Origin: Patescibacteria group bacterium
Lineage (GTDB): Bacteria > Patescibacteriota > UBA1384 > CAJBMM01
Direction of reading: 5' to 3'
DNA length: 64,000 nucleotides
NCBI GenBank assembly: GCA_041660565.1
Contig: JBAZWC010000001.1
Span: 366,481 to 430,480, forward strand
Part shown: positions 20,400 through 46,554 of the stretch, piece by piece
Layout of the letters: every line of letters starts with the position of its first letter
Numbering within the stretch: the first letter of the stretch is position 1
The notes under the pieces: model-generated
Seen by the model: the letters and a program-made list of their open reading frames with translations, nothing else
What the model was told of the DNA's origin: nothing
Database searches by the model: none
Translations under genes and position numbers: made by a program

Positions 20400-20969
20400 A
20401 TGGAATTAGATAAACTGGATGACAAAGCATTGGTTGCCCTAGCCCAAGAACAACATCAAGGTGCGCAACAGTTGCTTTATCGCCGATACTTTCAGCCGAT
20501 ATACGGCTATCTTGCTTCGCAACTTAGAAACACTCATAACGCAGAAGACTTGGCTCAGGAAACCTTTGTTCGTGCTTTTCAGGGATTGCATAACTATCGC
20601 GGTGAGGCAAGCTTCAAAAACTGGCTTTATAAGATTGCCAAAAATCAGCTTGCCGATTATTATCGTGATCAGCATTCCGGCGTAGTCGAGCTAGATGACG
20701 CCGCACCGCCAAGACAATTACAAAAGAATATGCTCGACGAAACCGACACCGAAGCAGCTGACAAACAAACAATGCGCCGCTTAAACAAAATGTTTTTCTA
20801 CCTACCGGCAAAATACAAAAAGGTGCTGGTGTTAAGATTTCTTAAGGGATTCTCTTTAAAAGAAACGGCTTCTGAAATGAATCTAAGCTTAGCCAATACT
20901 AAAGTAATTCAACATCGCGCCATGAAACTAGCCCGAACTAAGACGGAATTTGTCTATGAAGAAAATTAA
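20400..20969 (+). CDS. ECF-type RNA polymerase sigma-70 family factor
   Basis: Region 2 (DLAQETFVRAFQGLHNYRGEASFKNWLYKIAKNQ) and region 4 (VLVLRFLKGFSLKETASEMNLSLANTKVIQHRAMKLAR). Confidence 0.85.
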   Translation: MELDKLDDKALVALAQEQHQGAQQLLYRRYFQPIYGYLASQLRNTHNAEDLAQETFVRAFQGLHNYRGEASFKNWLYKIAKNQLADYYRDQHSGVVELDDAAPPRQLQKNMLDETDTEAADKQTMRRLNKMFFYLPAKYKKVLVLRFLKGFSLKETASEMNLSLANTKVIQHRAMKLARTKTEFVYEEN

Positions 20970-22119: not shown

Positions 22120-22128
22120 TCTTGCCTC

Positions 22129-22482
22129 TTATAAACTTGGCTGATTTTCGGATGGCTGCGTTCCGGCAGCTGAAATCGAGCTATCCATTGTAGTAATGCT
22201 ATTTGTTACAGATGTTGAGGCACTATCCAAATCTGTAGCAGTTACGGGTGCAGTGGAAACTGGCGTAGCGACAGCCGGAGATGCAGTTGAAGAAGCTGAA
22301 GAAGTTGAAGAAGTTGTGCTCGCAGATACGCTCGGCGCTGCAACAGGTGAATTAACTGAAATATTCGCAGATTCGCTGTTATTTTGATTGGTTAAATAAT
22401 ACGCGATAAAACCCGACCCCGCTACAATAATTAACCCCAGTACCCACCACAAAATGGCATGGCTTTTATGTTGTTCAGGCAT
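22129..22482 (-). CDS. Small membrane-anchored Ser/Thr-rich protein
   Basis: N-terminal TM (ILWWVLGLIIVAGSGFIAYYL) followed by S/T-rich low-complexity tail. Confidence 0.45.
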   Translation of the reverse strand: MPEQHKSHAILWWVLGLIIVAGSGFIAYYLTNQNNSESANISVNSPVAAPSVSASTTSSTSSASSTASPAVATPVSTAPVTATDLDSASTSVTNSITTMDSSISAAGTQPSENQPSL

Positions 22483-22647
22483 TTTTCTCCTTTGGCTTGT
22501 AACTTAATTCTATTTAAAAACACCCCTCTTGTCCATCCTCTCTCCGAGTCTATCGGCTCGTAGAGTCGGAGACCATCCCCTATCATCTATCATCTGAAAT
22601 GTTGACAACCGCCGAAACAAGTATAAATTAGAACCAAAGGTACTAAT

Positions 22648-23211
22648 TTGAATAATAAAGAAAAAATCCTACAATTTGCGGCTAGCGAGATGTCCAGATT
22701 GGGCTTTAATGCAGTATCAATGGATATGATTGTTGAAAAAACCGGCATTGCCAAAAGCAATGCTTATTATCACTATCAAAATAAAGAGGATTTAGGGATA
22801 GACGTCCTAAATTTTTGGGCAGGAATTTGGCGCGAATTTTGTGAAGTTACCATCAGCAACAAATCGCTTGAATTCGATATGAAATTTGAGCAGTTTTTTG
22901 ACCGGATAATTTTATACCAAACCAAAGCCCACTTTCCCGGCCCCCCGTTACTACAAATTGCCGGAGAAATGCAAAATGCACGCGCCAAAGAGATTTATCA
23001 AGAAACGTACCGATTTTACTATACGTCTTGTGCGAATTTTATCCTATTAGGGCAGCAAAAAGGTGTGATTAAACGTAATCTGAATGCTGAATTAGCCTCT
23101 AGTTTACTATTAAACGAGATTGGTGGGGCATTAATGGAATCGCGAATTTCGCAAAATGCCGCTCCAATTATTAAAGCTAAGCATATTATTAAGTCACTCA
23201 TTTACGCATAA
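22648..23211 (+). CDS. TetR/AcrR-family transcriptional regulator
   Basis: N-terminal HTH (FNAVSMDMIVEKTGIAKSNAYYHYQNKEDL). Promoter-like TTGACA about 22594 upstream. Confidence 0.85.
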   Translation: MNNKEKILQFAASEMSRLGFNAVSMDMIVEKTGIAKSNAYYHYQNKEDLGIDVLNFWAGIWREFCEVTISNKSLEFDMKFEQFFDRIILYQTKAHFPGPPLLQIAGEMQNARAKEIYQETYRFYYTSCANFILLGQQKGVIKRNLNAELASSLLLNEIGGALMESRISQNAAPIIKAKHIIKSLIYA

Positions 23212-23248
23212 ATATAGCCCGCCACCCTTTCGGGGCAGCGGGCCGTGT

Positions 23249-24103
23249 TCAGGTCTTGTGGTGATCCAGCCATCCGGCAACCTTGGCGAACATCTGGTAA
23301 ACCGGCAGCGCCAGATCTTCAATACGGTTGAGCATAGCGGCGTACTCGTCTTCGGTTGGAGCACGCGATCTGGCGGGATCATCGTCACTCAGTGGCATAG
23401 TTGAGGCGGCATACCATGCTTCCAGCAATGCGTTGTACCGACGGTCAACAGCCACCGCTTGCGACAGTTCCTGAGCAATATCGCAACCGCGATGCTGTTT
23501 TGCCAACTCGATCACGAATTGCCGAGAGTCATCAGGCATCTCCACGCCCTGATACTCCAATACCTTGCGCGTGAGATGCACCGGCCCCTCGACAATCTTC
23601 TGTAGCCATTCCAACCGGTCAGCACCAACGCGTGGCTTAAGCAGTCGTGAGCCGAAGATGTGCAATTTGTGCACGAGGTAGTTCCCCAAATCAGCCCTTG
23701 CCGTCGTCCCTGTCAGATTTAGGTACCGAAGGGGCGACTGGATGTGTTTGAGCAGACCGTCCGCTTGCTCTGCTCGGCGTAGGTGTTGGCAGAGTCCGTA
23801 TCCGATGGTGTGATAATGTCCACGAGCCAAGCTGAACGGGACTATGTAGATATTCAGCGGGACGTGATTCCCAGCTGCTTGGGCGATCATTCTTTTGCTC
23901 GTCTCGACCATCTCCGCGTAACAATCGTCCCGGCAGATGACCACAAACTCCACATCGCTTCGTCTGTTGATGCCGGCGGCGCGTTTTGGAAGCGTTGACC
24001 CAAACTGAATTGCCGCCACCGGCCGCATCTTGGTAATGGCGATTTTTGCGGTTCGAGCCACTGCCCGAATCTCTTCGGTAGTTGGTACCCGATGATGAAT
24101 CAA
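23249..24103 (-). CDS. Pol-beta-superfamily nucleotidyltransferase-domain protein (Lnu/ANT-like size), high-GC island gene
   Basis: FGSTLPKRAAGINRRSDVEFVV is the GS-x(n)-DxE nucleotidyltransferase motif. About 59% GC versus about 43% in flanking housekeeping genes. Confidence 0.5.
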   Translation of the reverse strand: MIHHRVPTTEEIRAVARTAKIAITKMRPVAAIQFGSTLPKRAAGINRRSDVEFVVICRDDCYAEMVETSKRMIAQAAGNHVPLNIYIVPFSLARGHYHTIGYGLCQHLRRAEQADGLLKHIQSPLRYLNLTGTTARADLGNYLVHKLHIFGSRLLKPRVGADRLEWLQKIVEGPVHLTRKVLEYQGVEMPDDSRQFVIELAKQHRGCDIAQELSQAVAVDRRYNALLEAWYAASTMPLSDDDPARSRAPTEDEYAAMLNRIEDLALPVYQMFAKVAGWLDHHKT

Positions 24104-24254
24104 GTCGTTCCACGAAAATATCTGTCCCTTTAGGGCACCTCCCCCGAGAAGTTTTGGTAAGGTTCTACCTGTTGACGCCTAAGCGTAGGACTTTTTAGCA
24201 CAAATGTCAACCCCGTTAGAAGCGAATCCACCCTTGCCTCTAACGGGGTCAATC

Positions 24255-24345
24255 ACCTTGTCATTCCGGGCTCGATTGTTCCGCTAGGGACTAACGATTC
24301 CGACCGCAAGGTAGCGAGGAGTATCCGGAATCTATGTAAAAGAAT
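24255..24345. repeat. Palindromic GTCATTCCGG…TCCGGAATCTATG repeat element (near-identical copy at 48655-48745)
   Basis: About 88% identity over about 90 nt with 48655-48745. Related units at 48600-48650, 49672-49745, 53399-53495 and 55748-55940. Confidence 0.65.
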
Positions 24346-24437
24346 AGTCAAAACCGTGCTTATTTGGGACCTGTCCCCTATTAAATATAAAAGACGCTCC
24401 GAGGTTGCCCTCGGAGCGGTGTATTCCAGATAAGTCG

Positions 24438-25511
24438 CTATGCCACAGCAACCGGTGGAATGTTGAAGTTGAGCTCGGCAACCCTAAGGTCGCTGGCTGC
24501 ATCCTCGGGAGCGGTCACGTTGATGTAGATTCCGGTGCCCAATTCGAACCCGGCGGCGATTGTCAGGCGGGGCATGATCGTCAGATGCCAATGGAAGTCG
24601 CACTCACGATCCTGGTTCACCGGAGCCGTGTGCAGCATGAAGTTGTACGGTGGATCGTTGAGGCTGGCGCCGATGCACCGCAGTATGTATTGGCAGATGC
24701 TCGCAAACGCGTTGATGGTGCCACGTTCCATCGCTGCGAACGAAGGCATATGCCTCCGCGGCATAATCCATGTCTCGTACGGGTACTTGGCCGCAAACGG
24801 GCAGAAGGCGACAAACTCTGGGTTCTGCGCCACGATGCGCTCGCCTAATTGCTCTTCCTGCTTCAGCATGTCGCAGTAGATGCAGCGATCATGGAAATCG
24901 TAGTACCGCGCAGCACCCGCAATCTTCAACATCACATTCGCCGGCACAATCGGCGTAGCGACCAATTGACAGTGCGAATGGGGTTGCGACGCTCCTCCGA
25001 TTCTCCCCTTGTTCTTGAACAATAGGATGTACTGGAAACGCTTGTCCTGTGTCAGATCAAGAACGCGATCGCGATAGGCCCAGAACACCTCCTGAGCTTG
25101 AAGGCCGGTGACGGTCGCAATAGACCGATTGTGATCGACGCTCTCGATGATGACCTCGTGTGCTCCAATGCCATTCATCTGGTCATACATCCCATAACCC
25201 GTTCTGTCCAACTCGCCCTCGATGGCCAGCGCAGGGAACTTGTTAGGCACCACGCGCGCCCACCAGCCAGGCTTGTTTGGGGCCGAGTCGGCGGAACGGT
25301 AGGCCAACACTTCCGGCGGCGTCATGTACTCATTGCCGGGGCAAAACGGGCATGCATCTTCGTGCTCCCGAAGCGGCGGTTCCGCCACGATCTTGAATTC
25401 GTCCGTCCGCTTACTGCGGCCGGTAGCTACAATGACCCACTCACGGGTCACCGGGTCTTTCCGCAATTGCGGATGCGCCGTGACTTTTGGCATTGTAACA
25501 TCCTCCCCCAT
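24438..25511 (-). CDS. galT: Galactose-1-phosphate uridylyltransferase family (HIT-like, class I GalT) protein
   Basis: Zn-binding CPFCPGNE and catalytic PHSHCQ (HxHxQ) motifs. High GC. Confidence 0.75.
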   Translation of the reverse strand: MGEDVTMPKVTAHPQLRKDPVTREWVIVATGRSKRTDEFKIVAEPPLREHEDACPFCPGNEYMTPPEVLAYRSADSAPNKPGWWARVVPNKFPALAIEGELDRTGYGMYDQMNGIGAHEVIIESVDHNRSIATVTGLQAQEVFWAYRDRVLDLTQDKRFQYILLFKNKGRIGGASQPHSHCQLVATPIVPANVMLKIAGAARYYDFHDRCIYCDMLKQEEQLGERIVAQNPEFVAFCPFAAKYPYETWIMPRRHMPSFAAMERGTINAFASICQYILRCIGASLNDPPYNFMLHTAPVNQDRECDFHWHLTIMPRLTIAAGFELGTGIYINVTAPEDAASDLRVAELNFNIPPVAVA

Positions 25512-25587
25512 GAGTTGTGTGGTACTCGGATGCCCCTACTGTATCTGTAAACAGCAAAATAAGCAATAAGAAAAACGGCCGGCCCCG

Positions 25588-25854
25588 CTAGGGAGCCGAC
25601 CGTGGTCGAGTCTCGAAGATCGCATGGCATAACACGACTAAGCCCATTACAACCTTCAACGCCAGGATCAACACTACGATCGTGATCAGGTCACAGTACG
25701 GGCTGGCCTTTCTGGCGATGTCCACGGCGCTCGTGATACCACATGTGACCACGAAGACCGTGTAGAACACCCATAGACTCGAATTCCTAGTCTTGGGGTG
25801 TATCAACGAGAAGGCAAGGAACGCAAGCGCCATCCACGTAAGCCAGAGCATCAT
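25588..25854 (-). CDS. Small multi-TM membrane protein, tandem paralogue 5 of 5
   Basis: Probable start MMLWLTWMALAF… Follows the previous paralogue closely. High GC. Confidence 0.45.
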   Translation of the reverse strand: MMLWLTWMALAFLAFSLIHPKTRNSSLWVFYTVFVVTCGITSAVDIARKASPYCDLITIVVLILALKVVMGLVVLCHAIFETRPRSAP

Positions 25855-25858
25855 CGCT

Positions 25859-26122
25859 TCACCCCTCCGTCTCGTCGCTTCTGACAAACAACGTCAGATG
25901 CACCGCAACAAATGCGGCGATCAGTAGAACGATGTACATCCATACTTCCTCGAACACTGTCTTCGTAACCCACGTCATCACCACCGACCCCGTAACAGCC
26001 AGAGCGATTGTGGCAACGCACAACACTACCCGCACCTTCCGACGAAGACGAACTACGCCTTGAGCAAGCACAAAGACCAAAACGACCATCGCCCCGACGA
26101 TCCACCACCACGCTACCAACAT
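25859..26122 (-). CDS. Small multi-TM membrane protein, tandem paralogue 4 of 5
   Basis: Probable start MLVAWWWIVGAMVV… (the track ORF extends further upstream). Start is within a few nt of the stop of the gene upstream. Confidence 0.45.
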   Translation of the reverse strand: MLVAWWWIVGAMVVLVFVLAQGVVRLRRKVRVVLCVATIALAVTGSVVMTWVTKTVFEEVWMYIVLLIAAFVAVHLTLFVRSDETEG

Positions 26123-26126
26123 CGCC

Positions 26127-26405
26127 CTAACCCTCCTTGGACGCGAGTTGCCCCCGCCCCCAGCGCGTCGTGAACTCGTACACCTCAACCAGACCGATCG
26201 CGGATACAACCAGCACGACGCACACGCCCGGACTGGTGAACTGGGACGCCACCATTACCACCGTCAGTATAATCCACTTGGTATAGTAGACGTTCATCTC
26301 CGGGGATTGCGGATCAACCTCGATGCTGGACAGATAGCGCTGGTCGTTGGCGATGATTAGCCCCAGCACTGCCAGTGATACTGCCCATATCACCCACGTT
26401 AGCAT
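26127..26405 (-). CDS. Small multi-TM membrane protein, tandem paralogue 3 of 5
   Basis: Probable start MLTWVIWAVSLAVLG…, closely following the upstream stop. Confidence 0.45.
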   Translation of the reverse strand: MLTWVIWAVSLAVLGLIIANDQRYLSSIEVDPQSPEMNVYYTKWIILTVVMVASQFTSPGVCVVLVVSAIGLVEVYEFTTRWGRGQLASKEG

Positions 26406-26749
26406 CTTTTCGCCCCTCCATTGGTCTTGTTCCGCCTGGCGGATTTCAGACCCCAGATCAGAAGCAGCCACGTAGTCGGATTATCGGCAAGGGGTTGCTC
26501 TTGGTTGACTTGGTCAAGCAGGTCATAGATTGCGATGGCTACCAACAGCGCTTCCATCGCGCAGATGGCTGCCAAAGCCACATATCCCCAACCCGCGTAA
26601 GCCCAGCGATGCGTAACCCCTATCATGCATGCCAGCCAACCAACGCCCATAATAATGCGATCGCACACTTTAACACGCTCCGGGTACGCGATCGCGAAGA
26701 TTACCACCGCTACCATAGCCAGCAGTACTACCGCTTGCCACCCGATCAT
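26399..26749 (-). CDS. Small multi-TM membrane protein, tandem paralogue 2 of 5
   Basis: Probable start MIGWQAVVLLAMVAVV… The longer track ORF 26399-26896 overlaps the upstream gene. Confidence 0.45.
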   Translation of the reverse strand: MIGWQAVVLLAMVAVVIFAIAYPERVKVCDRIIMGVGWLACMIGVTHRWAYAGWGYVALAAICAMEALLVAIAIYDLLDQVNQEQPLADNPTTWLLLIWGLKSARRNKTNGGAKRC

Positions 26750-27027
26750 GACAATCTCTCCCTCTCTGCTCGAAAGACAACCAGAAAACACCAGATGAGC
26801 AGACCCGACGCCACCGACGCCATCAAGCGGGCACACAACCACCATCTCCCGGCAAACGTCGAGGTTGGAAATGCGACGATCATCGCCAGCATCCAACCCA
26901 CCAAAACCAGCAGACGACCATCCTTGATCGTCCTAAGATCGTGACAAAACGTCAGCGGAAAACCGCTGATCAAACAGACCGCCGAAAGGACCATGGCGGC
27001 CATTACTGCCCAATGTATTATGTCCAT
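26746..27027 (-). CDS. Small multi-TM membrane protein, tandem paralogue 1 of 5
   Basis: Probable start MDIIHWAVMAAMVLSAV… The longer track ORF would run through the tmRNA promoter. Confidence 0.45.
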   Translation of the reverse strand: MDIIHWAVMAAMVLSAVCLISGFPLTFCHDLRTIKDGRLLVLVGWMLAMIVAFPTSTFAGRWWLCARLMASVASGLLIWCFLVVFRAERERLS

Positions 27028-27055
27028 TTGTTCAGGTCCTCCCCCGGGTTCGTTA

Positions 27056-27084
27056 TTGACAATGTACACCATATTTGGTACAAT
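27056..27084 (+). promoter_or_regulatory. Consensus sigma-70 promoter TTGACA-17-TACAAT for ssrA, with TGTACA dyads
   Basis: -35 at 27056-27061 and -10 at 27079-27084, about 40 nt before the tmRNA 5' end. aaTGTACAcc…caaTGTACAt repeats. Confidence 0.6.
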
Positions 27085-27122
27085 GTACATAGCTAGAACA
27101 TTAAAAATTTGCAAAAAATCAT

Positions 27123-27514
27123 GGGGCTGTATTAGATTCGACAGGCCGTCCACATTCACCCTTGCATAACGAGACGCTCACTCACTCGTAAAACGCGAGC
27201 AAAAAACAATAACTGCCAACAGTTTTGTTAGCAAAGTCAAAGGTGCTTTTGCATCTATGTCCTTTGCGCCAGCTTTCGCCTAAAACCGAAAGCCGTTTGC
27301 TTTCTTCTTCGTTGATGAAGAAAGGCCAAGCGTCATATTATCAACGCGCCAAAGTGTAGATTCATTCTGTAAACTTTGAAAGATACTGAATGTGCTGGGA
27401 TAACTAACTTGGAGTGCTCATTATGTTAGACCAAAAGAAATTTGAACACCTAATTATGTAGAAAAGATGAATGTACCGGTTTGGACAGGAGTGCAACTCT
27501 CCTCAGCTCCACCA
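27123..27514 (+). ncRNA. ssrA: tmRNA (SsrA), one-piece. tRNA-like ends GGGGCUG…UCCACCA. Predicted tag ORF ANSFVSKVKGAFASMSFAPAFA*
   Basis: 5' ggggctgtattagattcgacagg and 3' ggacaggagtgcaactctcctcagctccacca closely parallel E. coli ssrA. Resume codon GCC follows aataact, and the frame ends gct ttc gcc taa. Confidence 0.85.
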
Positions 27515-27597
27515 CGCTAAGCGTGGTAATCGGGACGCTCAGCGTCCCACCAAATGTATGGAATTATTCCATTTTTAATGTTACGACGCTAAGCGTC
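27510..27597. repeat. Three short hairpins of the NNCGC-TNA-GCGNN family directly after the tmRNA 3' end
   Basis: ccacgcTAAgcgtgg, gggacgcTCAgcgtccc and gacgcTAAgcgtc. The same hairpin family occurs at 55882-55917 and 59017-59052. Confidence 0.55.
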
Positions 27598-27604
27598 GCA
27601 AACT

Positions 27605-27952
27605 TTGAAAAACGTTTGGATTAGTACTCTTAGCAACAAAAATGAACCAGAAATGGTTCTTTTTTGTTATAATAATATTATGTATTATGTTTATATTTTA
27701 TTAAGTGATAAAGATGACATGCTGTATTTTGGTAGTACACCAAATTTACAGGAAAGAATCGCAAAACATGACGCTGGATTTGTTAAAGCAACGCAAAACA
27801 GGCGACCACTTAAATTATTATACTACGAGGCATATTCATCAAAAATTGATGCGCTAAAAAGAGAGAAGTATTTTAAGGGAGGGAAAGGCCATAACGACCT
27901 AAAAGTGCAATTTGAGAATACCTTGCTAAAAAATAATTATATATTTCTCTAA
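27605..27952 (+). CDS. GIY-YIG nuclease-domain protein (UPF0213-like small endonuclease)
   Basis: YYVYILLSDKDDMLYFGSTPNLQERIAKHDAG…REKYFKGGKG. The track start is TTG. A more likely start is ATG at 27653 or 27680 (possibly leaderless after a TATAAT at 27667). Confidence 0.75.
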   Translation: MKNVWISTLSNKNEPEMVLFCYNNIMYYVYILLSDKDDMLYFGSTPNLQERIAKHDAGFVKATQNRRPLKLLYYEAYSSKIDALKREKYFKGGKGHNDLKVQFENTLLKNNYIFL

Positions 27953-28065
27953 ACATTTGTAGAATTCCGTCGCAGACATTTTTGATACCAACATGAAAGT
28001 GTTGGTGTTTTTTGTTACAAAAAAACCTACTCATTCAAGTAGGATGTAATCGCCAGAAAATAGAA

Positions 28066-28094
28066 GCGGGAGGCAGCCAATTGGCTGCCTCCCG
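28066..28094. terminator. Perfect GC-rich palindromic hairpin (gcgggaggcagcc-aatt-ggctgcctcccgt) downstream of the secreted paralogue gene
   Basis: 13-bp perfect stem. Same hairpin family at 29031-29059 and 29990-30018. Confidence 0.55.
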
Positions 28095-28123
28095 TGTGAG
28101 ACAGGTGTTGCCGGCGCCGTGGG

Positions 28124-28753
28124 CTAGTCGTGGCCTTGCGGGCAGGCCCGGACATAGTCACCGGCGAATACGCCCGTCACCTGTGTCCCGTAGTTGTACT
28201 GGTTGTCGCGGCAGTTGGAGACCCCGACGTAGTATACGCGGTAGGACGCCGGGTAAATGATGCGCCACGTCCACATCTGCCCGTTGAAGTAGAACTCCTG
28301 GTGTGTCGGAATGATCGCCGAGTTGTTGGCCCACGTTAGCCTGGAGTTGAAGTAGTGTGGCGCATCGGTATCATATTCGTGCGTGCTATTCCAGTACCAA
28401 TCGTACGCCATGGCATGCGTGGCCCACGTCAACTCCTCATGCCACAGCTGGTTACCAACAGCGTCGTACGTGCCATTGGTGCCGCCGTACACCGACTGCC
28501 AAGTGGTCGTGGCGTTGGCGTCGGTGTAGAAGACCCACCTCGGGTGGATGGCGAAGGTCGCGTTGGCATTACCATTGGTGTATGGTTGACCCATCCACTC
28601 GAAGACGAAGAAGACCTCATCTGTCGTGTAGTTGTACGCGCACTCCCAGTCAACCTCGATGTTCGAGTTGTTGAGGTACCCAGGGGTCGCCTGAGCCATC
28701 GTCGGGAAGAGCATGACGGCCAGCGCCGCCAGCAGAACGAGATGCTTACGCAA
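28124..28753 (-). CDS. Secreted W/Y/N/T-rich protein, paralogue A1 (about 209 aa), high-GC island
   Basis: Signal peptide MRKHLVLLAALAVMLFPTMAQA. TTG start preceded by GGAG. C-terminus …CPQGHD. About 60% identical to 29092-29724. Confidence 0.65.
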   Translation of the reverse strand: MRKHLVLLAALAVMLFPTMAQATPGYLNNSNIEVDWECAYNYTTDEVFFVFEWMGQPYTNGNANATFAIHPRWVFYTDANATTTWQSVYGGTNGTYDAVGNQLWHEELTWATHAMAYDWYWNSTHEYDTDAPHYFNSRLTWANNSAIIPTHQEFYFNGQMWTWRIIYPASYRVYYVGVSNCRDNQYNYGTQVTGVFAGDYVRACPQGHD

Positions 28754-28990
28754 TTTCTTCTCCTAGCCCACAAACCGCGGGGGCGGGGTCGGTACTGCAT
28801 GATGGGTACGACAATCATCGTACGGCATACGGCACCCGACTTGGCTAGTCTTACATCACGTCGATAGGCGCATTCCCCCTTGATTCCGACCGAACCAAAA
28901 CCACTACCGGTCTTTTGGAAACCACATCTGTGTGGAATCCACCAGATAAGTAAGTTGTTCAGGTTCGGTGCTGTAATACACACAAAAGGT

Positions 28991-29059
28991 ATAATAACAC
29001 ATCCATATTATTTATGTCAATATATTATAAGCGGGAGGCAGCCCGAAGGCCGCCTCCCG
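28991..29059 (-). promoter_or_regulatory. Terminator hairpin followed by TTGACA-18-TATTAT promoter, a repeated module upstream of each secreted paralogue
   Basis: Hairpin gcgggaggcagcccgaaggccgcctcccgt (29031-29059). Minus-strand -35 at 29015-29020. Module repeated at 29950-30018. Confidence 0.5.
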
Positions 29060-29091
29060 TGTGAGACAGATGTTGCCGGCGCCGTACCGGA

Positions 29092-29724
29092 CTAGTCGTG
29101 GCCCTGCGGGCACGGCCTGAGCTTATCTTCCGAGAAGAAGCTGAAGGGGTCCCCCCAGTTTCGGTTGTTATCGCAACACTTGGTGTCAACGTGGTACGCC
29201 ACGCGGTAAGTCGCGGGGTAAATGGCGTCGTAGTGATACATGTAAGGCGGAATGCCATCCCACACGAGCACGTAATGCCTAGGGATAACCGCCGAGTTGA
29301 GCGCCCAGGTCAGGTGCGAGTTGAAGTAGTGAGTCGTACCGTCGTAGCTGGCGTTCGATGTATCCCATTCCCACCCGTAGGTCATGGCGTGAGTAGCCCA
29401 GGTTATGGACTGTTGCCACAGTATGTTGCCAACTGCGTCGTAAACACCTCCGGAGCCGTACACTTCGTTCCACGGGATAGTGCCGGCGGAATCGGTGTAG
29501 AAGATGTAACACGGGTGAATGGTGAAGTCGGCCTCGGCTGACCCATTGCTTGTCGGCATTCCGCTCCACACGATGTTGTACGAGACGATATCAGTGGTGT
29601 TGTTGTAGGCCACATCCCACTGAATCGTGATGTCGTCAACGGATACGTATCCCGGTGTTGCCGATACGGGGAGCTGGGCAAACATGACGACCAGGGCCGC
29701 CAGCAAAACGAGATGCTTACGCAA
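29092..29724 (-). CDS. Secreted W/Y/N/T-rich protein, paralogue A2 (about 210 aa)
   Basis: Signal peptide, TTG start, C-terminus …RPCPQGHD. Shares a roughly 290-nt conserved upstream leader with A1. Confidence 0.65.
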   Translation of the reverse strand: MRKHLVLLAALVVMFAQLPVSATPGYVSVDDITIQWDVAYNNTTDIVSYNIVWSGMPTSNGSAEADFTIHPCYIFYTDSAGTIPWNEVYGSGGVYDAVGNILWQQSITWATHAMTYGWEWDTSNASYDGTTHYFNSHLTWALNSAVIPRHYVLVWDGIPPYMYHYDAIYPATYRVAYHVDTKCCDNNRNWGDPFSFFSEDKLRPCPQGHD

Positions 29725-30045
29725 TTTCTTCTCCTAGCCCTCAAACCACGGGGGCGGGGTCGGTACTGCACCGAGTGTACGGCATACAGCGCCCGACTTG
29801 GCTAGTCTTACGGCTTCACGACAATAGGCATTTCCCCCTTGATTCCGACCGGACCAAAACCACTACCGGTCTTTTGGAAACCACTCCTGTGTGGAATCCA
29901 CTAGATAAGTAAGTTGTTCAGGTTCGGTGCTGTAATACACACAAAAAGTATAATAACACATCCATATTATTTATGTCAATATATTATAAGCGGGAGGCAG
30001 CCCGAAGGCCGCCTCCCGTGTGAGACAGATGTTGCCGGTTGGCCC

Positions 30046-30546
30046 TTAGGGGGCAATCCATGCAGTCGTCGCGGACGTGGCGGTAGCACCGTCACCCTTC
30101 ACGTACACCTTCAGGGTGACGAGTATGTACTTGTACGGCCACGGGACGTAGTAGGTGATGTCCCTATACGATTGGAAGCTCGGCCGACCCTCGTCGTAAT
30201 CGGCGTAGTCCTGCCAGATGATGTTGCCGTTCTCGAAGGCCTGCGCTCCGGCCGTCTGACCGGAGGCAGAGCAGCTCCCCTTGAGGTCGCAGGTGATGCC
30301 TCCAGAAGTACCTATCCACAACCCGCTCTGCCACGCGTAGACAACAGAGTATGTCGCCGTGGCGTAGCTGTCGTTCTCGTCGTGCCCGACGCCCTTGAGA
30401 TATCCGGAACCGACCGTGAACGTCCCGGTACCGGTGGTGCTGGTGATGACCGGGGTGGTCTGGGTCATCACCCAATCAGCCATCGAGGAGACGGACAGCG
30501 ACATCAGCGCGCAGATCGCAACGAACAGCATGGTTAGACGCTTCAT
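30046..30546 (-). CDS. Secreted Gly/Thr/Tyr-rich protein, paralogue B1 (start at MKRLTMLFVAICALMSL…)
   Basis: Signal peptide. Shared motifs GNDENDSYATATY, WQDYADYD and WPYKYxLVTLKVYVKG with 30805-31308. Confidence 0.6.
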   Translation of the reverse strand: MKRLTMLFVAICALMSLSVSSMADWVMTQTTPVITSTTGTGTFTVGSGYLKGVGHDENDSYATATYSVVYAWQSGLWIGTSGGITCDLKGSCSASGQTAGAQAFENGNIIWQDYADYDEGRPSFQSYRDITYYVPWPYKYILVTLKVYVKGDGATATSATTAWIAP

Positions 30547-30804
30547 TGCTTGGCTCCTGTGTGGTTTGATACAACTGAGCGGGGTCGTTTTGTCTCTGCT
30601 GGGGGCATACGACCACAATGTACGTCACCTGGCTTGGCTGGACTAATATCGATTAGCCATCACCTCCTTTAGGAGTTGCGCAAGCCCGACTCCTTTTTGA
30701 TTGCGATACGACTGAACTTGTCGAACCGCCAGCATATCAACAGTTGGCGACTTGCGCGGGCTACAGGGTACCCACATTATGTGGTTATCGGCTTATGCGC
30801 CAAC

Positions 30805-31308
30805 TCAGTACGTTAACGCTGCGGCGTATGCGGTAGTGCCAGTGCCCTTCACGTACACCTTCAGGGTGACGAGCACGTACTTGTACGGCCACATGACGTA
30901 GTAGCCGTAGTTTTCCGCCGAGTCGTAGGACGTCGGCCCGTCGTCGTAATCGGCGTAGTCCTGCCAAACAATGTTGCCGTTCTGGAAGACCTGCGACCCC
31001 GCCGTCTGTCCAGCCGATGAGGATTGCCCACTGACTATACCCCTGATTCCCCCATTGAAGCCTAACGGTAAACCAGGGCCAACCCACGAGTAGACGACAG
31101 CGTACGTCGCCGTGGCGTAGCTGTCATTCTCATCATTGCCGGTGCCCGATAGTGAGTTGACGCCAGCCACGAAAGTGCCGGTCCCGGTAATCGAGTTGAT
31201 GGTAACAGGACCCTCGAACATCACCCAACCGGCAGGGACAGCCATGGAGGCGACGGACAGCGACATCAGTGCGCAGAAAGCGACGAGCAGCACAGTGAGA
31301 CGCTTCAT
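30805..31308 (-). CDS. Secreted Gly/Thr/Tyr-rich protein, paralogue B2
   Basis: MKRLTVLLVAFCALMSLSVASMA signal. Paralogous to 30046-30546. Confidence 0.6.
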   Translation of the reverse strand: MKRLTVLLVAFCALMSLSVASMAVPAGWVMFEGPVTINSITGTGTFVAGVNSLSGTGNDENDSYATATYAVVYSWVGPGLPLGFNGGIRGIVSGQSSSAGQTAGSQVFQNGNIVWQDYADYDDGPTSYDSAENYGYYVMWPYKYVLVTLKVYVKGTGTTAYAAALTY

Positions 31309-31520
31309 TGCTTGGCTCCTTTTTGATTGCGATACGACTGAGCGTTACGACCGTAAAACACCTGGGTACGCAACAGGATCTTCGAGACCAGCTGTATTCC
31401 CCTTGCGATTCCTGTCAGTAATGGACTAAGTAGGTTGTTCAGGTTCAGCGCTGTAAAACACAATCAATATATTAACACATCCATATTATTCGTGTCAACA
31501 TCCGATGCAACAATAAGTAT

Positions 31521-31549
31521 TTGACATTTGAAAAAATTTATGTTAATAT
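31521..31549 (+). promoter_or_regulatory. Sigma-70 promoter TTGACA-17-TAATAT for the DEAD-box helicase gene
   Basis: -35 at 31521-31526, -10 at 31544-31549. Confidence 0.55.
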
Positions 31550-31640
31550 TAAAATAATGTGATTTTGAATATCGGGTATGTTGGTAGATGTCTCGTTGTT
31601 CAGCGCAAGAGATATAAACCAAACAGAAAGGTATTCATAA

Positions 31641-32849
31641 ATGAATAGCTCTATTTCCTCAGGAACAAAACCGTCTTATAACCGATTTTCGGGCGGAAAC
31701 CGTCGGACTAATTTTAGTGCCAGACCACGTTTTCGGGGTACCTACATTAGCCCGGAAAAATTTATCAATAAAGCAATTGTGCAAGCCGAACAACCGGCTT
31801 ATCAGCCACAAAATCGTTTTCGTGATTTTCATTTTGTAGGGACGTTGCAACGAAATATCGAACAACATGGCTATGTTACCCCCACTCCAATTCAAGACCA
31901 AGCCATTGCCCCAATTTTAGCCGGTCAAGATTTACTAGGCTTAGCCAACACCGGCACCGGTAAAACAGCTGCATTTTTATTGCCAATTATTCAATTAATT
32001 CACGCTGATCCAAATTTAGGCACCGCTTTAATTATTGTGCCAACTCGCGAGCTAGCGCTGCAAATTGACATGGAATTTAGAGCATTCATTCGTGATATGC
32101 GTTTATATTCGGCAGTTTGCGTGGGCGGTGCCAACATTTTTCGTCAGATTTCCACTCTTAGACGCAAACCACATGTCATTATCGGTACCCCGGGGCGGCT
32201 AAAGGATTTGGCTGACCGCGGAGATTTAAACTTATCTACCACCAGAATTTTAGTACTTGATGAAGCTGACAGAATGTTAGATATGGGCTTTAGTAAAGAT
32301 ATCAATGTTTTGGTAGATATGATCCCCCAAAATCGCCAAACATTGTGCTTTAGTGCAACGATTACTGAAACAGTTAAAGGGTTAGTGGATAAATTACTCA
32401 AAGAACATCAAACCATCTCGGTCTGCGCACCGGTAGCCAGCTCTCACATCGATCAAGATGTGGTGCGATACAACTCACCGGAACATCGTCTGGATTTGTT
32501 AATTCAAATGCTAACCAAAGCCGAGTACGAAAAAGTGTTGATTTTTGGCGAAACCAAACGCGGCGTGCAAAAATTATCCGAAAAACTGATGCAATCTGGC
32601 ATCACCGCCGAAGCCATTCATGGCAACAAATCGCAACCGCAGCGACAGCGCGCCTTGCAAGCGTTTCGTGATAACAACGTTAAAGCGTTGGTGGCTACCG
32701 ATGTAGCTGCCCGCGGATTAGATATTTCCGATATTTCGCATGTAATTAACTACGATCAGCCAAATACGTTTGACGACTACGTTCATCGCATTGGCCGCAC
32801 CGGTCGTGCCGGCAAAACCGGCAAAGCTCTCACCTTCGTCCAAGGATAG
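31641..32849 (+). CDS. DEAD-box ATP-dependent RNA helicase
   Basis: Q-motif, ANTGTGKTAAF (Walker A), DEAD, SAT and HRIGRTGRAG motifs. Confidence 0.92.
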   Translation: MNSSISSGTKPSYNRFSGGNRRTNFSARPRFRGTYISPEKFINKAIVQAEQPAYQPQNRFRDFHFVGTLQRNIEQHGYVTPTPIQDQAIAPILAGQDLLGLANTGTGKTAAFLLPIIQLIHADPNLGTALIIVPTRELALQIDMEFRAFIRDMRLYSAVCVGGANIFRQISTLRRKPHVIIGTPGRLKDLADRGDLNLSTTRILVLDEADRMLDMGFSKDINVLVDMIPQNRQTLCFSATITETVKGLVDKLLKEHQTISVCAPVASSHIDQDVVRYNSPEHRLDLLIQMLTKAEYEKVLIFGETKRGVQKLSEKLMQSGITAEAIHGNKSQPQRQRALQAFRDNNVKALVATDVAARGLDISDISHVINYDQPNTFDDYVHRIGRTGRAGKTGKALTFVQG

Positions 32850-32925
32850 GAGACTGTTCTCAACGTCCCCTGCCTTGGTTTTGGGATGGGTTTAGTGTAT
32901 AAAGATACCGAGGGGGAAGACAGCG

Positions 32926-33453
32926 ATGGAATACTACGTTGGTGTGCCTCTGCCCCAACCGCTCGACTACTACATCCACGTGGTTAGACGCACGTGGGGG
33001 TGCCGAAACAAAAGCGACCCGCATTTGACCTTGATGGTGCCGCGGAGTCTGTTACCAAACCGGACTGAGCGTGAGCTAACCACAGCGCTGGCCGGAATTG
33101 CTGCTCAGCCACTGGTATTTGAGGTTTCGATTAACGGTTTTGGGGTGTTTGAGGAAATCGGCAACCTTCATCTGGTTGTGGATCGTAGCGACCAGTTGGT
33201 GGCTTGCTGCAAGGCCATCGATCATGCGGTTGAGGGGATTTTGGCACCTTCGGCGTCTAAGTACGCCCATATCCCCAGCCCACACATCACCGTACTAGAC
33301 AGGCTACCACAAAAAGACCTTGCTTTGGCATTGGCACAGCTTGGCCCGTACAAGTTTGGGCCAACCCACCTTCAATGCAGCACACTCCACCTATTCAAAG
33401 ATGGCAACTCGACCATCGGCTGGCAGATAGCCCAGACCATCAGACTCAGCTAA
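32926..33453 (+). CDS. 2H phosphoesterase (LigT/ThpR-like RNA 2',3'-cyclic phosphodiesterase), high GC
   Basis: Two H-x-T-x motifs (PHLTLMVP and PHITVLD) about 85 aa apart. Confidence 0.65.
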   Translation: MEYYVGVPLPQPLDYYIHVVRRTWGCRNKSDPHLTLMVPRSLLPNRTERELTTALAGIAAQPLVFEVSINGFGVFEEIGNLHLVVDRSDQLVACCKAIDHAVEGILAPSASKYAHIPSPHITVLDRLPQKDLALALAQLGPYKFGPTHLQCSTLHLFKDGNSTIGWQIAQTIRLS

Positions 33454-33534
33454 ACCCGCCCGGTTAACGCCGCGGCGGGTTCAACTTATATAAAAAAGAG
33501 GGCGGCCGCGACATGCGCGAACGCCCTACTCCCC

Positions 33535-34257
33535 CTAGAACTTGACCTCGAGTGATGTGGTGATGGTGTCATTGATGCACCCGGAAGAGCTACCGACGCT
33601 CTTCTGCAGTGCAATCTCGGGCACCAACGTCACCTTGCCCGCGGCAATCGGCCGCTTGATGATCAGCCGAAGGTGGCTGACCAGCTCGGGCTGGGCGCCA
33701 AACGCGCCATCGTTCCCCCCGGCGGACAACTCCAGATTGCATCCCTTGATGGAGCTTTTGACTCCCACCCGCCAGAACATCCCGCCCTCCAGGATGTTGG
33801 GGCTGTCGGGTACGCAGCTGTCGACCGAGATAAACGGTCGCACCAGCCCGCGATTCGCCGTTAGAGACGTGGTCAGGTCGTGCACGTCACCCCGCCAGTG
33901 CCCCACCGGCATTAGGTCGAAGAAGCAATATTCGACATTGACATTGGCCTGTCCGCGCCAGATGTTGCTGGCATAGCCGACGCCGTAGTCGATTTCCGAC
34001 GCCCAGTCTCGGTTCCAGCCCGACCGGGTGGGGACGCATCCCCACACATAGGCGTAGAACGGGCCCTTGGCGGCGGTGGCCATCCCCTGCACCACCGGCT
34101 TGTTGTAGATGACGTTCCCGGTCACACTGCCGGTGTACTGGCTGCGCCACTTGATCATGTACGACATCTGCTGGGCATCGGACGTGCGGGCCAAGCCCAG
34201 AGACATCAGAATGACTACGACCATCGCCCTGCAATGCATTGCCGTCTCCTTATGCAA
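33535..34257 (-). CDS. Secreted protein with outer-membrane beta-barrel-like features (MipA/OmpV-like composition, C-terminal Phe), high GC
   Basis: Signal peptide. Alternating aromatic/hydrophilic beta-strand pattern. Terminal …SLEVKF. Start probably at the internal MHCRAMVVVILMSLGLA. Confidence 0.45.
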   Translation of the reverse strand: MHKETAMHCRAMVVVILMSLGLARTSDAQQMSYMIKWRSQYTGSVTGNVIYNKPVVQGMATAAKGPFYAYVWGCVPTRSGWNRDWASEIDYGVGYASNIWRGQANVNVEYCFFDLMPVGHWRGDVHDLTTSLTANRGLVRPFISVDSCVPDSPNILEGGMFWRVGVKSSIKGCNLELSAGGNDGAFGAQPELVSHLRLIIKRPIAAGKVTLVPEIALQKSVGSSSGCINDTITTSLEVKF

Positions 34258-34376
34258 TCGCTGTAGATATCTGACTTGTCGTTAGCATTTTATAATACTT
34301 GAGCTTGTTTGTCAATATCATTGCTCTAAATACTCTAATCTATTACAATAAACTGACTAATAACTTTGGAGCGGCA

Positions 34377-38567: not shown

Positions 38568-39395
38568 CTATCGGAACTTCTGGGGCACGTTCTCGGCGTC
38601 CGCTAGCCGATAACCGTTCTCGCCCAACCTCTGTACCACCTCGCTGTAATCGCTCCGGTTGAAGCCACGAATCGTTGATAACGCGGCCGGGGTGCACGCA
38701 GCCAGCTGCAGAATGGTTAGAATACCCGACTTCTGTAGCAAGCCACAGGTACGAGCAGGAAAGCCGAGCTCGATGATCCGCCTGATAGTGTCGAGACGCT
38801 CGCTCTTGCGGTGTACTTGATCGTCAACGCCGTCGATCTCCCACACTAGCCTACGGGCATCGTGACCCGCCTTACCGAGCAGCCGAGACAGCCGACTCAC
38901 CCGCCCGTGAAGATTGGCGTTCACATCCATGACGCTTTTTGTCCGAGCAGAGAAGCCAACCACCTCCTCGGCCACCCGACCGTCCATGAACAGCGAGATG
39001 GCGGTAGTTGACGCCACTCTTCCCAATTGCTGGGCCAGAGCGGTGCGCAATAACAGGTCGGCGCGCATGGCAGAAAATGCCCGCTCATCCTGCAACACCA
39101 GCTTCGCCCGATCTTGTCCTCTCTCGCTGGTCAACCAGTCCCAGAAGAAGCGATAAAAGCTCTGATCGATCTCTGTCCGGCGCAAGAGAATGTCAAAGCT
39201 GACCGCTTTGTGTTCACGCTCGTGGTAGAACGTCCGCGCATCCTTGACCGTTGCCGACGCGATGATGGCGTCCATCAGAAGATCGTAGTTTGGCCAGCAA
39301 TGCGACAACCAGAACTGCTTCGCCTCGGGCAGCACATCCGGAATCAGCTCCCACAACCGCTTCAGGTTGTTAAACGTATTTCTTTGCCCCGCCAT
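38568..39395 (-). CDS. Hypothetical protein with C-terminal RNA-polymerase alpha-subunit CTD-like (HhH) domain, high GC
   Basis: C-terminal ARTCGLLQKSGILTILQLAACTPAALSTIRGFNRSDYSEVVQRLGENGYRL resembles alpha-CTD (…SVRSxNCLKxxGIxTVGDLVxxSExELLKIPNFGKKSxxEIxxxL). GAGGAGGG Shine-Dalgarno. Confidence 0.6.
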   Translation of the reverse strand: MAGQRNTFNNLKRLWELIPDVLPEAKQFWLSHCWPNYDLLMDAIIASATVKDARTFYHEREHKAVSFDILLRRTEIDQSFYRFFWDWLTSERGQDRAKLVLQDERAFSAMRADLLLRTALAQQLGRVASTTAISLFMDGRVAEEVVGFSARTKSVMDVNANLHGRVSRLSRLLGKAGHDARRLVWEIDGVDDQVHRKSERLDTIRRIIELGFPARTCGLLQKSGILTILQLAACTPAALSTIRGFNRSDYSEVVQRLGENGYRLADAENVPQKFR

Positions 39396-39568: not shown

Positions 39569-39985
39569 CTACCAGAAATCCTTTGGCAACACATCGGCTT
39601 CGGCCAACTTAACGCCGAGAATCTCCAACTTCTGCAGAACCTCGTAGTAGCCTTTTTTCCCGAAGTTGCGAACAGATGCCAGCTCGGACGGAGTCAACTC
39701 AACCAAGTCAGCAACGGTTAATATGTTAGCCCTCGCGAGTGACTTAAAAGGCCTGACCGAGAGACCAAGATCCCCAATCCATATATGGAGAATCGCTTGA
39801 GGAGTCTGAGCATCCGTGTCAGCGGCACCGCCCGCTAGAAATCGCTCCAGATCCCTTCCCTTCAGCTTTTCCTTGAAAAGGCTGACCAGCCGAAGGTTCT
39901 GCACCCTCAGCCGGCGATTCTCCTCTAGAACAGCTTGGCACTGCTCAAAGGAGACCAGCCCCTCCGAAGACTCTGTATCCACCAT
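39569..39985 (-). CDS. Small protein (138 aa) with C-terminal RNA-polymerase alpha-CTD-like domain, high GC
   Basis: LSVRPFKSLARANILTVADLVELTPSELASVRNFGKKGYYEVLQKLEILGVKL is alpha-CTD-like. C-terminal tail LAEADVLPKDFW parallels LADAENVPQKFR of its neighbour. Confidence 0.6.
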   Translation of the reverse strand: MVDTESSEGLVSFEQCQAVLEENRRLRVQNLRLVSLFKEKLKGRDLERFLAGGAADTDAQTPQAILHIWIGDLGLSVRPFKSLARANILTVADLVELTPSELASVRNFGKKGYYEVLQKLEILGVKLAEADVLPKDFW

Positions 39986-45899: not shown

Positions 45900-46005
45900 A
45901 CTGTTGTTTTGTAATTTAATAACATATTTATAAGCACAGCGTTGTGTATATCCGTTTGGGTGTGCAGATCGCTGTGTTTATCTACATGGTAAATAGGAGG
46001 AAACC

Positions 46006-46416: not shown

Positions 46417-46427
46417 CATTCCATCGC

Positions 46428-46470: not shown

Positions 46471-46554
46471 CTGATTAAAAAAATAAGACCATCAACGGTC
46501 TTTTTTTAGTAACTACCTTATGTCATAAAACTATCACAAAAATAAAGGAGGAAT

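Follow-up and report, generated by a model that had tools for sequence, protein, structure and literature searches.

In E. coli ompA and B. subtilis aprE, a stem-loop in the leader, or 5′ untranslated region (5′UTR), stabilizes the mRNA of an abundant exported protein. The vpma and vsp gene families of mycoplasmas combine a highly conserved 5′UTR and signal-peptide DNA with mature coding parts that differ (PMC2268961). The Bdellovibrio protein Bd1399 is an elongated β-sandwich that is secreted and has been implicated in predation (PMC10792529). Horizontal transfer and genomic islands are well documented in Patescibacteria (PMC12455944). Here we analyze a locus that resembles described systems of these kinds in part: four minus-strand genes at 28124–31308 within a stretch of 64,000 nucleotides (nt), hereafter the window, from a Patescibacteria group bacterium (assembly GCA_041660565.1, contig JBAZWC010000001.1, positions 366,481 to 430,480). 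We refer to them as A1 and A2 (pair A) and B1 and B2 (pair B). An earlier note, made from the letters of the sequence, had described them as two tandem pairs of secreted paralogues, each gene preceded by the same module of hairpin, promoter and long leader, and had suggested that the leaders may be cis-regulatory RNAs. Its observations proved to be largely right, if over-generalized, and its interpretation is supported in part.

We consider it likely that the locus is a horizontally acquired GC-rich islet of three tandem units for secreted orphan proteins, with a regulatory block that has been copied recently. The islet, about 3.5 kb long, would sit in a Saccharimonadia-like Patescibacteria genome between the transfer-messenger RNA (tmRNA) and GIY-YIG genes on one side and a helicase gene on the other. 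Each unit would combine a near-consensus sigma-70 promoter with an extended −10 element, a 5′UTR of 150–230 nt and a GC-rich hairpin terminator common to all three. As products, two families of small all-β proteins, unrelated to each other and restricted to the lineage, would be exported via Sec, cleaved by signal peptidase I and might act as extracellular or cell-surface binding proteins that recognize glycans or a host surface. The terminator–promoter–leader block would be a recent copy, made by tandem duplication and/or gene conversion, and the coding regions would be old. The 5′-proximal hairpin of the A leaders may stabilize the mRNA or modestly tune translation of these strongly expressed secreted proteins.

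Transcription units and the copied block

All four open reading frames (ORFs) appear in the ORF list of the window at the positions previously assigned to them, on the minus strand, and GenBank calls the same four proteins with the same lengths (MFA6082156.1–MFA6082159.1, all "hypothetical"). They are predicted to form not four identical modules but three transcription units, namely promoter–leader–B2–B1–terminator, promoter–leader–A2–terminator and promoter–leader–A1–terminator. Each of these expression units would be framed by the same type of promoter and the same type of terminator. In the order of transcription, the features are as follows (aa, amino acids; GC3, G+C content at third codon positions; z, z-score of the fold):

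31469–31498, minus strand: predicted promoter P3 of the B2–B1 unit; TTGACA, 18-nt spacer, TG-n-TAATAT; 10/12 in the promoter scan plus TG extension
31309–31462, minus strand: B2 5′ leader, about 154 nt
30805–31308, minus strand: B2 gene; 167 aa, ATG start, Sec signal peptide (cleavage after SMA), GC3 0.74, MFA6082159.1
30547–30804, minus strand: B2–B1 spacer, 258 nt, without terminator
30046–30546, minus strand: B1 gene; 166 aa, ATG start, Sec signal peptide, GC3 0.81, MFA6082158.1
29991–30018, minus strand: predicted terminator hairpin T3, after B1; 12-bp stem with one G·U pair, UUCG loop; −27.8 kcal/mol, z = −6.65
29950–29979, minus strand: predicted promoter P2 of A2; TTGACA, 18-nt spacer, TG-n-TATTAT; 11/12 in the promoter scan plus TG extension
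29725–29943, minus strand: A2 5′ leader, about 219 nt; long imperfect hairpin at 29848–29928, z = −3.78
29092–29724, minus strand: A2 gene; 210 aa, TTG start behind AGGAG, Sec signal peptide (cleavage after VSA), GC3 0.75, MFA6082157.1
29032–29059, minus strand: predicted terminator hairpin T2, after A2; sequence identical to T3
28991–29020, minus strand: predicted promoter P1 of A1, identical to P2
28754–28984, minus strand: A1 5′ leader, about 231 nt; long hairpin at 28889–28969, z = −5.18
28124–28753, minus strand: A1 gene; 209 aa, TTG start, Sec signal peptide (cleavage after AQA), GC3 0.82, MFA6082156.1
28067–28094, with tail to 28056, minus strand: predicted terminator T1, after A1; perfect 12-bp stem, AAUU loop, tail CUUCUAUUUU; −28.1 kcal/mol, z = −7.2
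28016–28043, minus strand: second terminator-like hairpin downstream of T1, with a run of seven T, from the terminator scan; it may be a back-up terminator

The evidence for recent copying comes from the comparison of A1 with A2. Their coding regions are old, with synonymous divergence (dS) of about 0.92–0.97 (0.67–0.72 for B1 and B2). The terminator–promoter–leader blocks of A1 and A2, by comparison, differ at about 2% of positions, about forty times less than the silent sites. DNA identity is 98–100% from the hairpin through the promoter and early leader and then decays to about 60%; it is 94–96% over the ribosome-binding site and the start of the signal peptide, 40–70% in the mature part and 80–84% from the C-terminus to the terminator. 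The hairpin loop, the 18-nt promoter spacer and the AT-rich stretch that separates terminator from promoter match no less closely. Selection on RNA structure cannot explain such even near-identity, which points to a block copied recently, by duplication or by gene conversion of the flanks, between old paralogues. The block appears to have moved as a unit, because it starts sharply 7–12 nt past the stop codons of B1 and A2, which are not homologous to each other. A swap of the central coding part through recombination in the conserved flanks could also explain the identity of the block. Two other accounts of this region were rejected. Mutagenesis by a diversity-generating retroelement does not fit, since the divergence is evenly spread and there is no reverse transcriptase nearby. 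A plus-strand ORF at 28880–29095 coincides with the 98% block; one of the four differences puts a stop codon into its A2 copy, and the ORF would cross the promoter and the hairpin.

The same identity profile could also be produced by a cassette system for varying surface or secreted host-interaction proteins, analogous to mycoplasma vsp, vpma and vlp, in which the conserved flanks would serve as recombination handles through which divergent mature domains could be swapped, inside the array or from strain to strain. Conserved ends around a diverged center are what such a system would leave, as are the first 11 aa and the CPQGHD tail, which are identical between A1 and A2; the precedent of vpma and vsp and the affiliation of the organism with a reduced-genome episymbiont lineage agree with it. 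The ratio of nonsynonymous to synonymous divergence (dN/dS), about 0.47–0.5, fits fast-evolving surface proteins as well. We nevertheless regard a cassette system as rather improbable. There are two copies per family only, and every unit has a complete promoter, whose spacer TAAATAATATGGATGTGT has no homopolymer, dinucleotide or other repeat tract. Invertible repeats are absent, and no recombinase, integrase or transposase gene was found among the neighboring ORFs scanned, at about 13.4–51.5 kb. The proteins lack a lipobox, and there are no internal repeats in the coding regions. Recent copying of the block between old paralogues remains our preferred reading.

We judge the four genes to be real, because the paralogues match each other strongly (A1 and A2 at 50% aa identity, E = 3e-69; B1 and B2 at 62%, E = 9e-68), nonsynonymous differences per site (pN) are below synonymous ones (pS), GC3 lies far above the G+C content at second codon positions (GC2), and the GenBank calls agree. 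Codon-position periodicity is strong (GC3 0.74–0.82 versus GC2 0.43–0.52), and all four starts have properly spaced Shine-Dalgarno sequences. The earlier claim of two tandem paralogue pairs with shared motifs is therefore borne out: A1 and A2 both end in CPQGHD, and B1 and B2 have (G)[NH]DENDSYATATY and WPYKY[IV]LVTLKVYVKG in common. Pair A is unrelated to pair B in a profile–profile comparison (probability 0.4%). TTG starts, proposed for all four genes, hold for A1 and A2, which begin with AGGAGAAGAAA-TTG, but not for B1 and B2, which begin with AGGAGCCAAGCA-ATG; the longer TTG ORF at 30046–30618 is an upstream extension of B1.

Scanning predicted three sigma-70-type promoters, which score 10–11/12 and each carry a TG extension (extended −10). 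With TTGACA, an 18-nt spacer and TATTAT or TAATAT, they have the −35 and −10 hexamers and the 16–18-nt spacing of this class, and a gene for RpoD is present in the window. The promoter–leader motifs of 20 and 26 nt occur in exactly three copies in the window, and none of 100 shuffles matches them. P3 stands back to back with the promoter of the helicase gene (31521–31549, plus strand). The B2–B1 spacer holds one weak promoter-like site (9/12, at 30803–30776), and B1 is probably co-transcribed with B2. Separately, we considered an extracytoplasmic function (ECF)-type promoter in the conserved GAACCTGAAC, which holds GAAC elements resembling the −35 of ECF promoters; an ECF sigma gene lies at 20400–20969 (plus strand), about 7 kb from the cluster. 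This candidate was rejected as unsupported, as no −10 element is conserved between the A and B2 copies.

The upstream GC-rich hairpins and the perfect palindromic terminators had been listed as different elements. The hairpins are real, but both descriptions refer to a single element, namely the preceding unit's terminator. It is found after A1, A2 and B1, with the stem 27–32 nt past the stop codon, and there is none after B2; the perfect palindrome is confined to the A1 copy, T1. All three copies have the stem expected of an intrinsic terminator (12 bp, about −28 kcal/mol, z −6.6 to −7.2). T1, with its tail CUUCUAUUUU, passes the terminator scan as the top match, whereas the tail of T2 and T3, CUUAUAAUAUAUU, is U-poor and does not qualify as a U-tract. 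Compared with T1, T2 and T3 have a UUCG loop and an A-to-G change that gives a G·U pair in the minus-strand RNA and an A·C mismatch in the opposite strand. That this change pairs in the coding-strand RNA only supports a function of the hairpin as RNA on the coding strand.

Leaders and the case for a regulatory RNA

How much the four upstream regions have in common varies greatly. A1 and A2 share the hairpin, the promoter and the whole leader, including 207 nt at 98% identity. For B2, the similarity to the A units is limited to the promoter and the initial 36 transcribed nt (TGTGTTTTACAGCGCTGAACCTGAACAACCTACTTA; local alignment z = 17.7). Upstream of B1 there is neither promoter module nor hairpin. 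The previously described module before each gene is therefore whole in A1 and A2, reduced to the promoter and 36 nt in B2 and missing from B1. Similarly, where conserved leaders of 230–290 nt had been proposed, the estimated 5′UTRs measure about 231 nt (A1), 219 nt (A2) and 154 nt (B2), and the whole leader is common to A1 and A2 only.

Upstream of B1, two parts match the B2 leader: 26 identical nt in a row (35 nt at 89%) and the ribosome-binding region. The 35-nt copy of the B2 leader end lies at 30690–30724 in the B2–B1 spacer. Next to it, about 131 nt without counterpart in the B2 leader are bracketed by AGGAG at 30690–30694 and 30554–30558. Within 30554–30694 (minus strand), one AGGAG closes the copied segment of the B2 leader and the other is the Shine-Dalgarno sequence of B1 itself. 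The 131 nt resemble an insertion, or a slipped duplication, within a leader that was originally short. A similarity between the B1 upstream region and the A leader (23/30 nt) equals the best shuffle and was dismissed as not significant.

The most conspicuous structure is a long imperfect hairpin of 81 nt in both A leaders (28889–28969 in A1 and 29848–29928 in A2), much more stable than shuffles (z −5.18 and −3.78, respectively); the whole A1 leader folds with z = −2.75. In addition, a predicted helix, CUAGCC/GGCUAG, abuts the Shine-Dalgarno sequence in both copies. These structures, together with a 5′UTR of about 220–230 nt, which is unusually long for a small genome, would be expected if the A-type leader were a true cis-regulatory RNA, whose hairpin and Shine-Dalgarno-abutting helix control translation or mRNA decay in response to temperature, a ligand, a protein or a small RNA, and whose near-identity reflects selection. 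We consider this unlikely. As noted above, the terminator loop and the promoter spacer, which lie beyond the reach of selection on RNA structure, match just as closely. Among 58 predicted pairs, none shows a compensatory change between A1 and A2, a comparison whose power is almost nil given two copies that are 94–98% identical in the structured part. The three differences in the hairpin region consist of an A–U pair turned into an A·C mismatch, the loss of one pair in the apical stem and one unpaired position; two of them thus weaken pairs, and the energy changes from −38 to −32 kcal/mol.

The other units do not preserve the structure either. The B2 leader as a whole is less structured than shuffles (z = +2.38), and its segment matching the A hairpin keeps the sequence of the 5′ arm without the partner arm (z = +0.77). 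Of the 6 pairs in the helix that abuts the Shine-Dalgarno sequence, 4 are broken in B1, and the B2–B1 spacer folds with z = −2.1. With a B2 leader that does not fold and a B1 region without significant similarity, no structure is common to all four genes. Of the three small hairpins described as conserved, those at 28917–28940 and 28895–28918 occur in both A leaders as sub-parts of the 81-nt hairpin; the third, at 28806–28823, lies within a 14-nt indel present in A1 only, and none occurs in the B leaders.

Rfam at gathering score matched the tmRNA and two tRNAs in the window and nothing else; at E up to 5, the region 27950–31650 gave three chance-level matches (17–23 bits versus gathering scores of 45–50). 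The 18-mer AATAATATGGATGTGTTA had 34 matches in 596 Gb of genomes, all single chance matches in unrelated taxa and none in Patescibacteria, and the 20-mer GAACCTGAACAACYTACTTA had 0 matches in JGI metagenomes. Since these scans of public DNA returned none, there are no further copies of the leader for covariation analysis. The idea of one cis-regulatory RNA common to the four genes is refuted, with the hairpin absent from B2, no counterpart in B1 and no Rfam family. The earlier note had held that a lack of covarying pairs, coupled with clear housekeeping homologues of the proteins, would speak against its interpretation; covarying pairs are indeed lacking, among two to three near-identical copies, and housekeeping homologues were not found. 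For the A-type leader as a regulatory RNA, two near-identical copies provide no support, and the view of the terminator–promoter–leader block as a conserved riboregulator is not supported by the sequences.

Two further observations concern the helicase leader. When the shared leader motif was examined for complementarity to the conserved hairpin loop of this leader, GTTGTTCAG was found 6 times versus 0.38 expected; we treated this as chance or shared ancestry, because segments of the module do not rank with the best partners when duplexes are scanned across the window. The helicase leader itself (31556–31640, plus strand) is conserved in relatives with a helicase 65–74% identical. Its conserved parts are TTGAATAYCGGGTA and the hairpin TCTCGTTGTTCAGCGCAAGAGA, and its very stable fold (z −4.46) includes the ribosome-binding region in its pairing. 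As a candidate for a conserved cis-regulatory leader, it is preferable to the A and B leaders.

Origin of the islet and its encoded proteins

The four coding regions are strikingly GC-rich (0.56–0.60) relative to their upstream regions (0.44–0.52), which bears out the contrast reported in the earlier note. Their GC3 of 0.74–0.82 compares with 0.41–0.45 in neighboring housekeeping genes (helicase, FtsX, ClpB-like and others); the GC content of the genome is about 43%. The 516-kb contig on which the proteins are annotated belongs to a metagenome-assembled genome labeled "Patescibacteria group bacterium", and the named homologues of the neighboring DEAD-box helicase (about 58–62% identical) come mostly from Saccharimonadales/Saccharibacteria. 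On one flank, the cluster starts about 0.6 kb past the 3′ end of the tmRNA gene (27123–27514), after a small GIY-YIG gene; on the other it is bounded by the helicase gene. Relatives with a helicase 65–74% identical keep the helicase–FtsX/ABC neighborhood and have none of these four genes. One relative has an RVT_1 reverse-transcriptase gene and an HD-domain gene upstream of the helicase, in place of this cluster.

The GC3 contrast and the absence from relatives with a retained helicase neighborhood make horizontal acquisition from an unsampled GC-rich donor the best inference. The search for a donor lineage, which the earlier note had proposed, gave neither a donor nor a homologue outside this genome, while the composition is indeed foreign to the host genome. 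The promoters of the cluster are AT-rich and of host type; this, together with the back-to-back arrangement of P3 and the helicase promoter, suggests that local promoter DNA was joined to foreign coding DNA and later copied.

Over a few hundred bases GC3 rises from about 0.43 to about 0.8, and 207-nt repeats break short-read assemblies, so one might ask whether the GC-rich genes are foreign to this genome altogether, a chimera of assembly or binning. We find this extremely unlikely. The islet lies inside the 516-kb contig, with the tmRNA gene on one side and, on the other, a helicase that has a conserved leader among relatives, and its host-type promoters include one back to back with that of the helicase. 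A Logan short-read assembly (SRR18595301) is 100% identical over 22124–28765, across the junction from native DNA into A1; its contig ends 12 nt from the A1 start codon, on the upstream side, where the ribosome-binding-site-proximal part of the leader is repeated. This identity corroborates the sequence and speaks against a chimera. The same pattern recurs in several other short GC-rich islets.

Those further islets (GC 0.52–0.62, GC3 0.6–0.83) lie at 23000–27000, 32900–34300 and 46000–49800 and include a GalT/HIT-like gene (24438–25511), small membrane ORFs (25588–27159) and a 519-aa orphan. The tmRNA gene stands between two GC-rich islets. Directly past its 3′ end, at 27508–27600 (plus strand), there are three small palindromes, CCACGCTAAGCGTGG, GGGACGCTCAGCGTCCC and CGACGCTAAGCGTCG, with the common core ACGCT[A/C]AGCGT. 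A tmRNA-associated island was rejected as a model, for lack of an attachment (att) repeat and of an integrase: the 22-nt 3′ end of the tmRNA occurs once only, even with 3 mismatches allowed, and the neighboring ORFs scanned include no integrase. A second, unrelated upstream module of ~95 nt, ~89% identical between its copies at about 24250–24345 and about 48650–48745 (minus-strand sense), precedes the GC-rich orphan genes 23249–24103 and 46954–48513. Re-use of leader/promoter modules may therefore be a wider habit of this genome.

What do the islet genes encode? The signal peptides claimed for all four proteins are evident in the translations. They show the n-h-c layout and a cleavage site of AxA type (AQA, VSA or SMA), with small residues in positions −3 and −1, as expected for Sec export and signal peptidase I; they include MRKH-LVLLAALAVMLF-PTMAQA|T and MKR-LTVLLVAFCALMSLSV-ASMA|V. 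None of the four has a lipobox, the sole cysteine of the pair B signal (AFC/AIC) not being preceded by G, A or S. The mature proteins, of about 187 aa in pair A and about 144 aa in pair B, are acidic and almost without lysine; mature B2 has no cysteine and mature B1 has two. The described richness in Trp, Tyr, Asn and Thr stands: together these residues make up 28–36% of the mature proteins versus 9–16% in the helicase, FtsX and sigma-70.

A word-index search of 5.8 billion clustered proteins returned only the proteins themselves, and a full HMMER search of 1.84 billion representatives with the pair A profile found no homologue beyond self. Weak multi-stretch HMMER matches (profile positions about 57–98; β-propeller-repeat, fn3 and type IX secretion system proteins) reflect one short motif and were rejected as homologues. 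IMG/VR, JGI metagenomes and GenBank phages and plasmids contained no homologue, and Pfam, NCBIfam, PHROGs and PDB sequences gave no match. Within the databases searched, the two families appear in no sequenced organism outside this genome.

Structure prediction was informative for pair B at best. The AlphaFold model of pair A is all-β and unusable (predicted local distance difference test score, pLDDT, of 35). That of pair B is a low-confidence ten-strand β-sandwich (pLDDT 66, predicted template modeling score 0.59). Its best Foldseek matches are the carbohydrate-binding modules CBM4, CBM6 and CBM61, phage tail-spike and tail-fiber domains and Bdellovibrio Bd1399 (PDB 8OKH), with E-values of 3.5e-5 to 1e-3, template modeling scores (TM) of 0.3–0.46, a root-mean-square deviation (rmsd) of about 9 Å and 10–15% identity. 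The resemblance to carbohydrate-binding modules is a lead rather than a classification: there is no Pfam match to such modules, and the best Foldseek E-value of 3.5e-5 comes with TM ≤ 0.46 and a pLDDT-66 model. Nor do the proteins belong to the DUF4360/Bd1399-like group, which is defined by a profile match and two conserved disulfides; Pfam gave no match at E up to 1. A role as secreted or surface-exposed binding proteins seems most likely.

Proteins that are small, secreted, aromatic-rich, all-β, acidic and almost lysine-free, expressed from strong promoters on an acquired islet, could also be antibacterial toxins or bacteriocins, lectin-like or pore-forming, directed against competitors or the host. 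Structural neighbors do include, weakly, a Cry-toxin jelly-roll domain and lectins, but the fold matches generic β-sandwiches (TM ≤ 0.46), and no toxin, bacteriocin or defense family was matched in Pfam, NCBIfam or PHROGs. The cluster has no immunity gene, dedicated exporter or processing gene, and the nearby FtsX/ABC pair is present in relatives without the cluster. An antibacterial function is in our view very unlikely, and we retain binding as the probable role. For the lectin-, toxin- or bacteriocin-like function suggested in the earlier note, the weak matches of the pair B model are the one hint.

At 33535–34239 (minus strand) there is another secreted orphan, of 234 aa, with a signal peptide, GC3 0.83 and a short leader, preceded by a near-consensus promoter (34315–34287; TTGACA, 17-nt spacer, TAAAAT); it shows no relation to pairs A and B, and neither Pfam nor PHROGs gave a match. 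Two giant ORFs at 6161–12604 and 860–4693 (both minus strand) encode 2147 and 1277 aa. The larger is 39% Thr+Gly+Ser, which suggests a large surface protein in the same region. The ORFs at 38568–39395 and 39569–39985 (both minus strand), whose sole Pfam match is the C-terminal domain of the RNA polymerase α-subunit (α-CTD), appear to be stand-alone α-CTD proteins.

Several points weigh against the proposed acquired islet with its recently copied block. The transcription starts, the joint transcript of B2 and B1 and the efficiency of termination are predictions, and T2 and T3, which lack a good U-tract, may allow read-through or act as 3′ stabilizers instead. As there are two copies only, very strong purifying selection on the block is not formally separable from gene conversion. 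No donor lineage was found, and horizontal transfer rests on composition and absence from relatives. The proposed function depends on a low-confidence model (TM ≤ 0.46, rmsd about 9 Å) for pair B, the pair A model being unusable.

Patescibacteria depend on other cells, yet few of the proteins with which they contact or exploit their hosts are known. The two orphan families described here, which are secreted, evolve fast, have strong promoters and lie on an acquired islet, are reasonable candidates, and the locus exemplifies how foreign GC-rich genes may be wired to host-type promoters. A bolder interpretation, to which we give little credence, is that a portable, genome-specific terminator–promoter–leader–signal-peptide block, with gene-converted recombination handles, fronts β-sandwich binding-protein genes from a GC-rich donor, possibly an actinobacterial host or its phage. 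If true, such an array would be a primitive host-interaction cassette system, analogous to the variable surface proteins of mycoplasmas and built differently; the second shared module described above hints at a wider re-use of promoter–leader segments for foreign genes. On present evidence, the locus comprises two lineage-specific families of hypothetical proteins with ordinary promoters and terminators and does not represent a new class of regulatory RNA.

Comparison with known systems

Each of the closest systems matches the locus in some respects. Like the ompA and aprE transcripts, the A units have a long leader with a stable 5′-proximal stem-loop in front of strongly promoted genes for exported proteins. 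The leaders are nevertheless unrelated in sequence, the hairpin here is much longer (81 nt), and it is found in two of three units. As in tmRNA (ssrA) islands, atypical DNA starts about 0.6 kb past the tmRNA 3′ end; here, however, it spans ~3.5 kb only, has neither an integrase nor a repeat of the tmRNA end and is matched by GC-rich DNA on the other side of the tmRNA gene.

At the protein level, pair B can be compared with carbohydrate-binding and lectin-like domains through its model, a roughly 145-residue all-β sandwich to which no sugar-binding residues could be assigned. With Bd1399 the proteins have in common that they are small, secreted and equipped with a signal peptide; Bdellovibrio, too, lives on other bacteria (PMC10792529).

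Regarding gene organization, the nearest counterparts are vpma of M. agalactiae, vsp of M. bovis and vlp of M. hyorhinis, which are likewise tandem paralogues in a reduced-genome, host-associated bacterium. Their combination of conserved 5′UTR and signal-peptide DNA with divergent mature parts is found in pair A and, in part, in pair B. The present proteins differ in having signal peptidase I-type signals without the lipobox cysteine, and the genes in having an intact promoter on every unit, two copies per family and no intragenic repeats. No Xer-like recombinase, inversion sites or phase-variable tract lie adjacent among the ORFs scanned, and sequence similarity to these families is absent. 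The locus is thus not a member of the vsp/vpma/vlp group and would at most have a loosely similar mode of evolution. Rather, it appears to be a new, lineage-specific example of a familiar kind: tandem genes for secreted proteins on an acquired islet with homogenized flanks.

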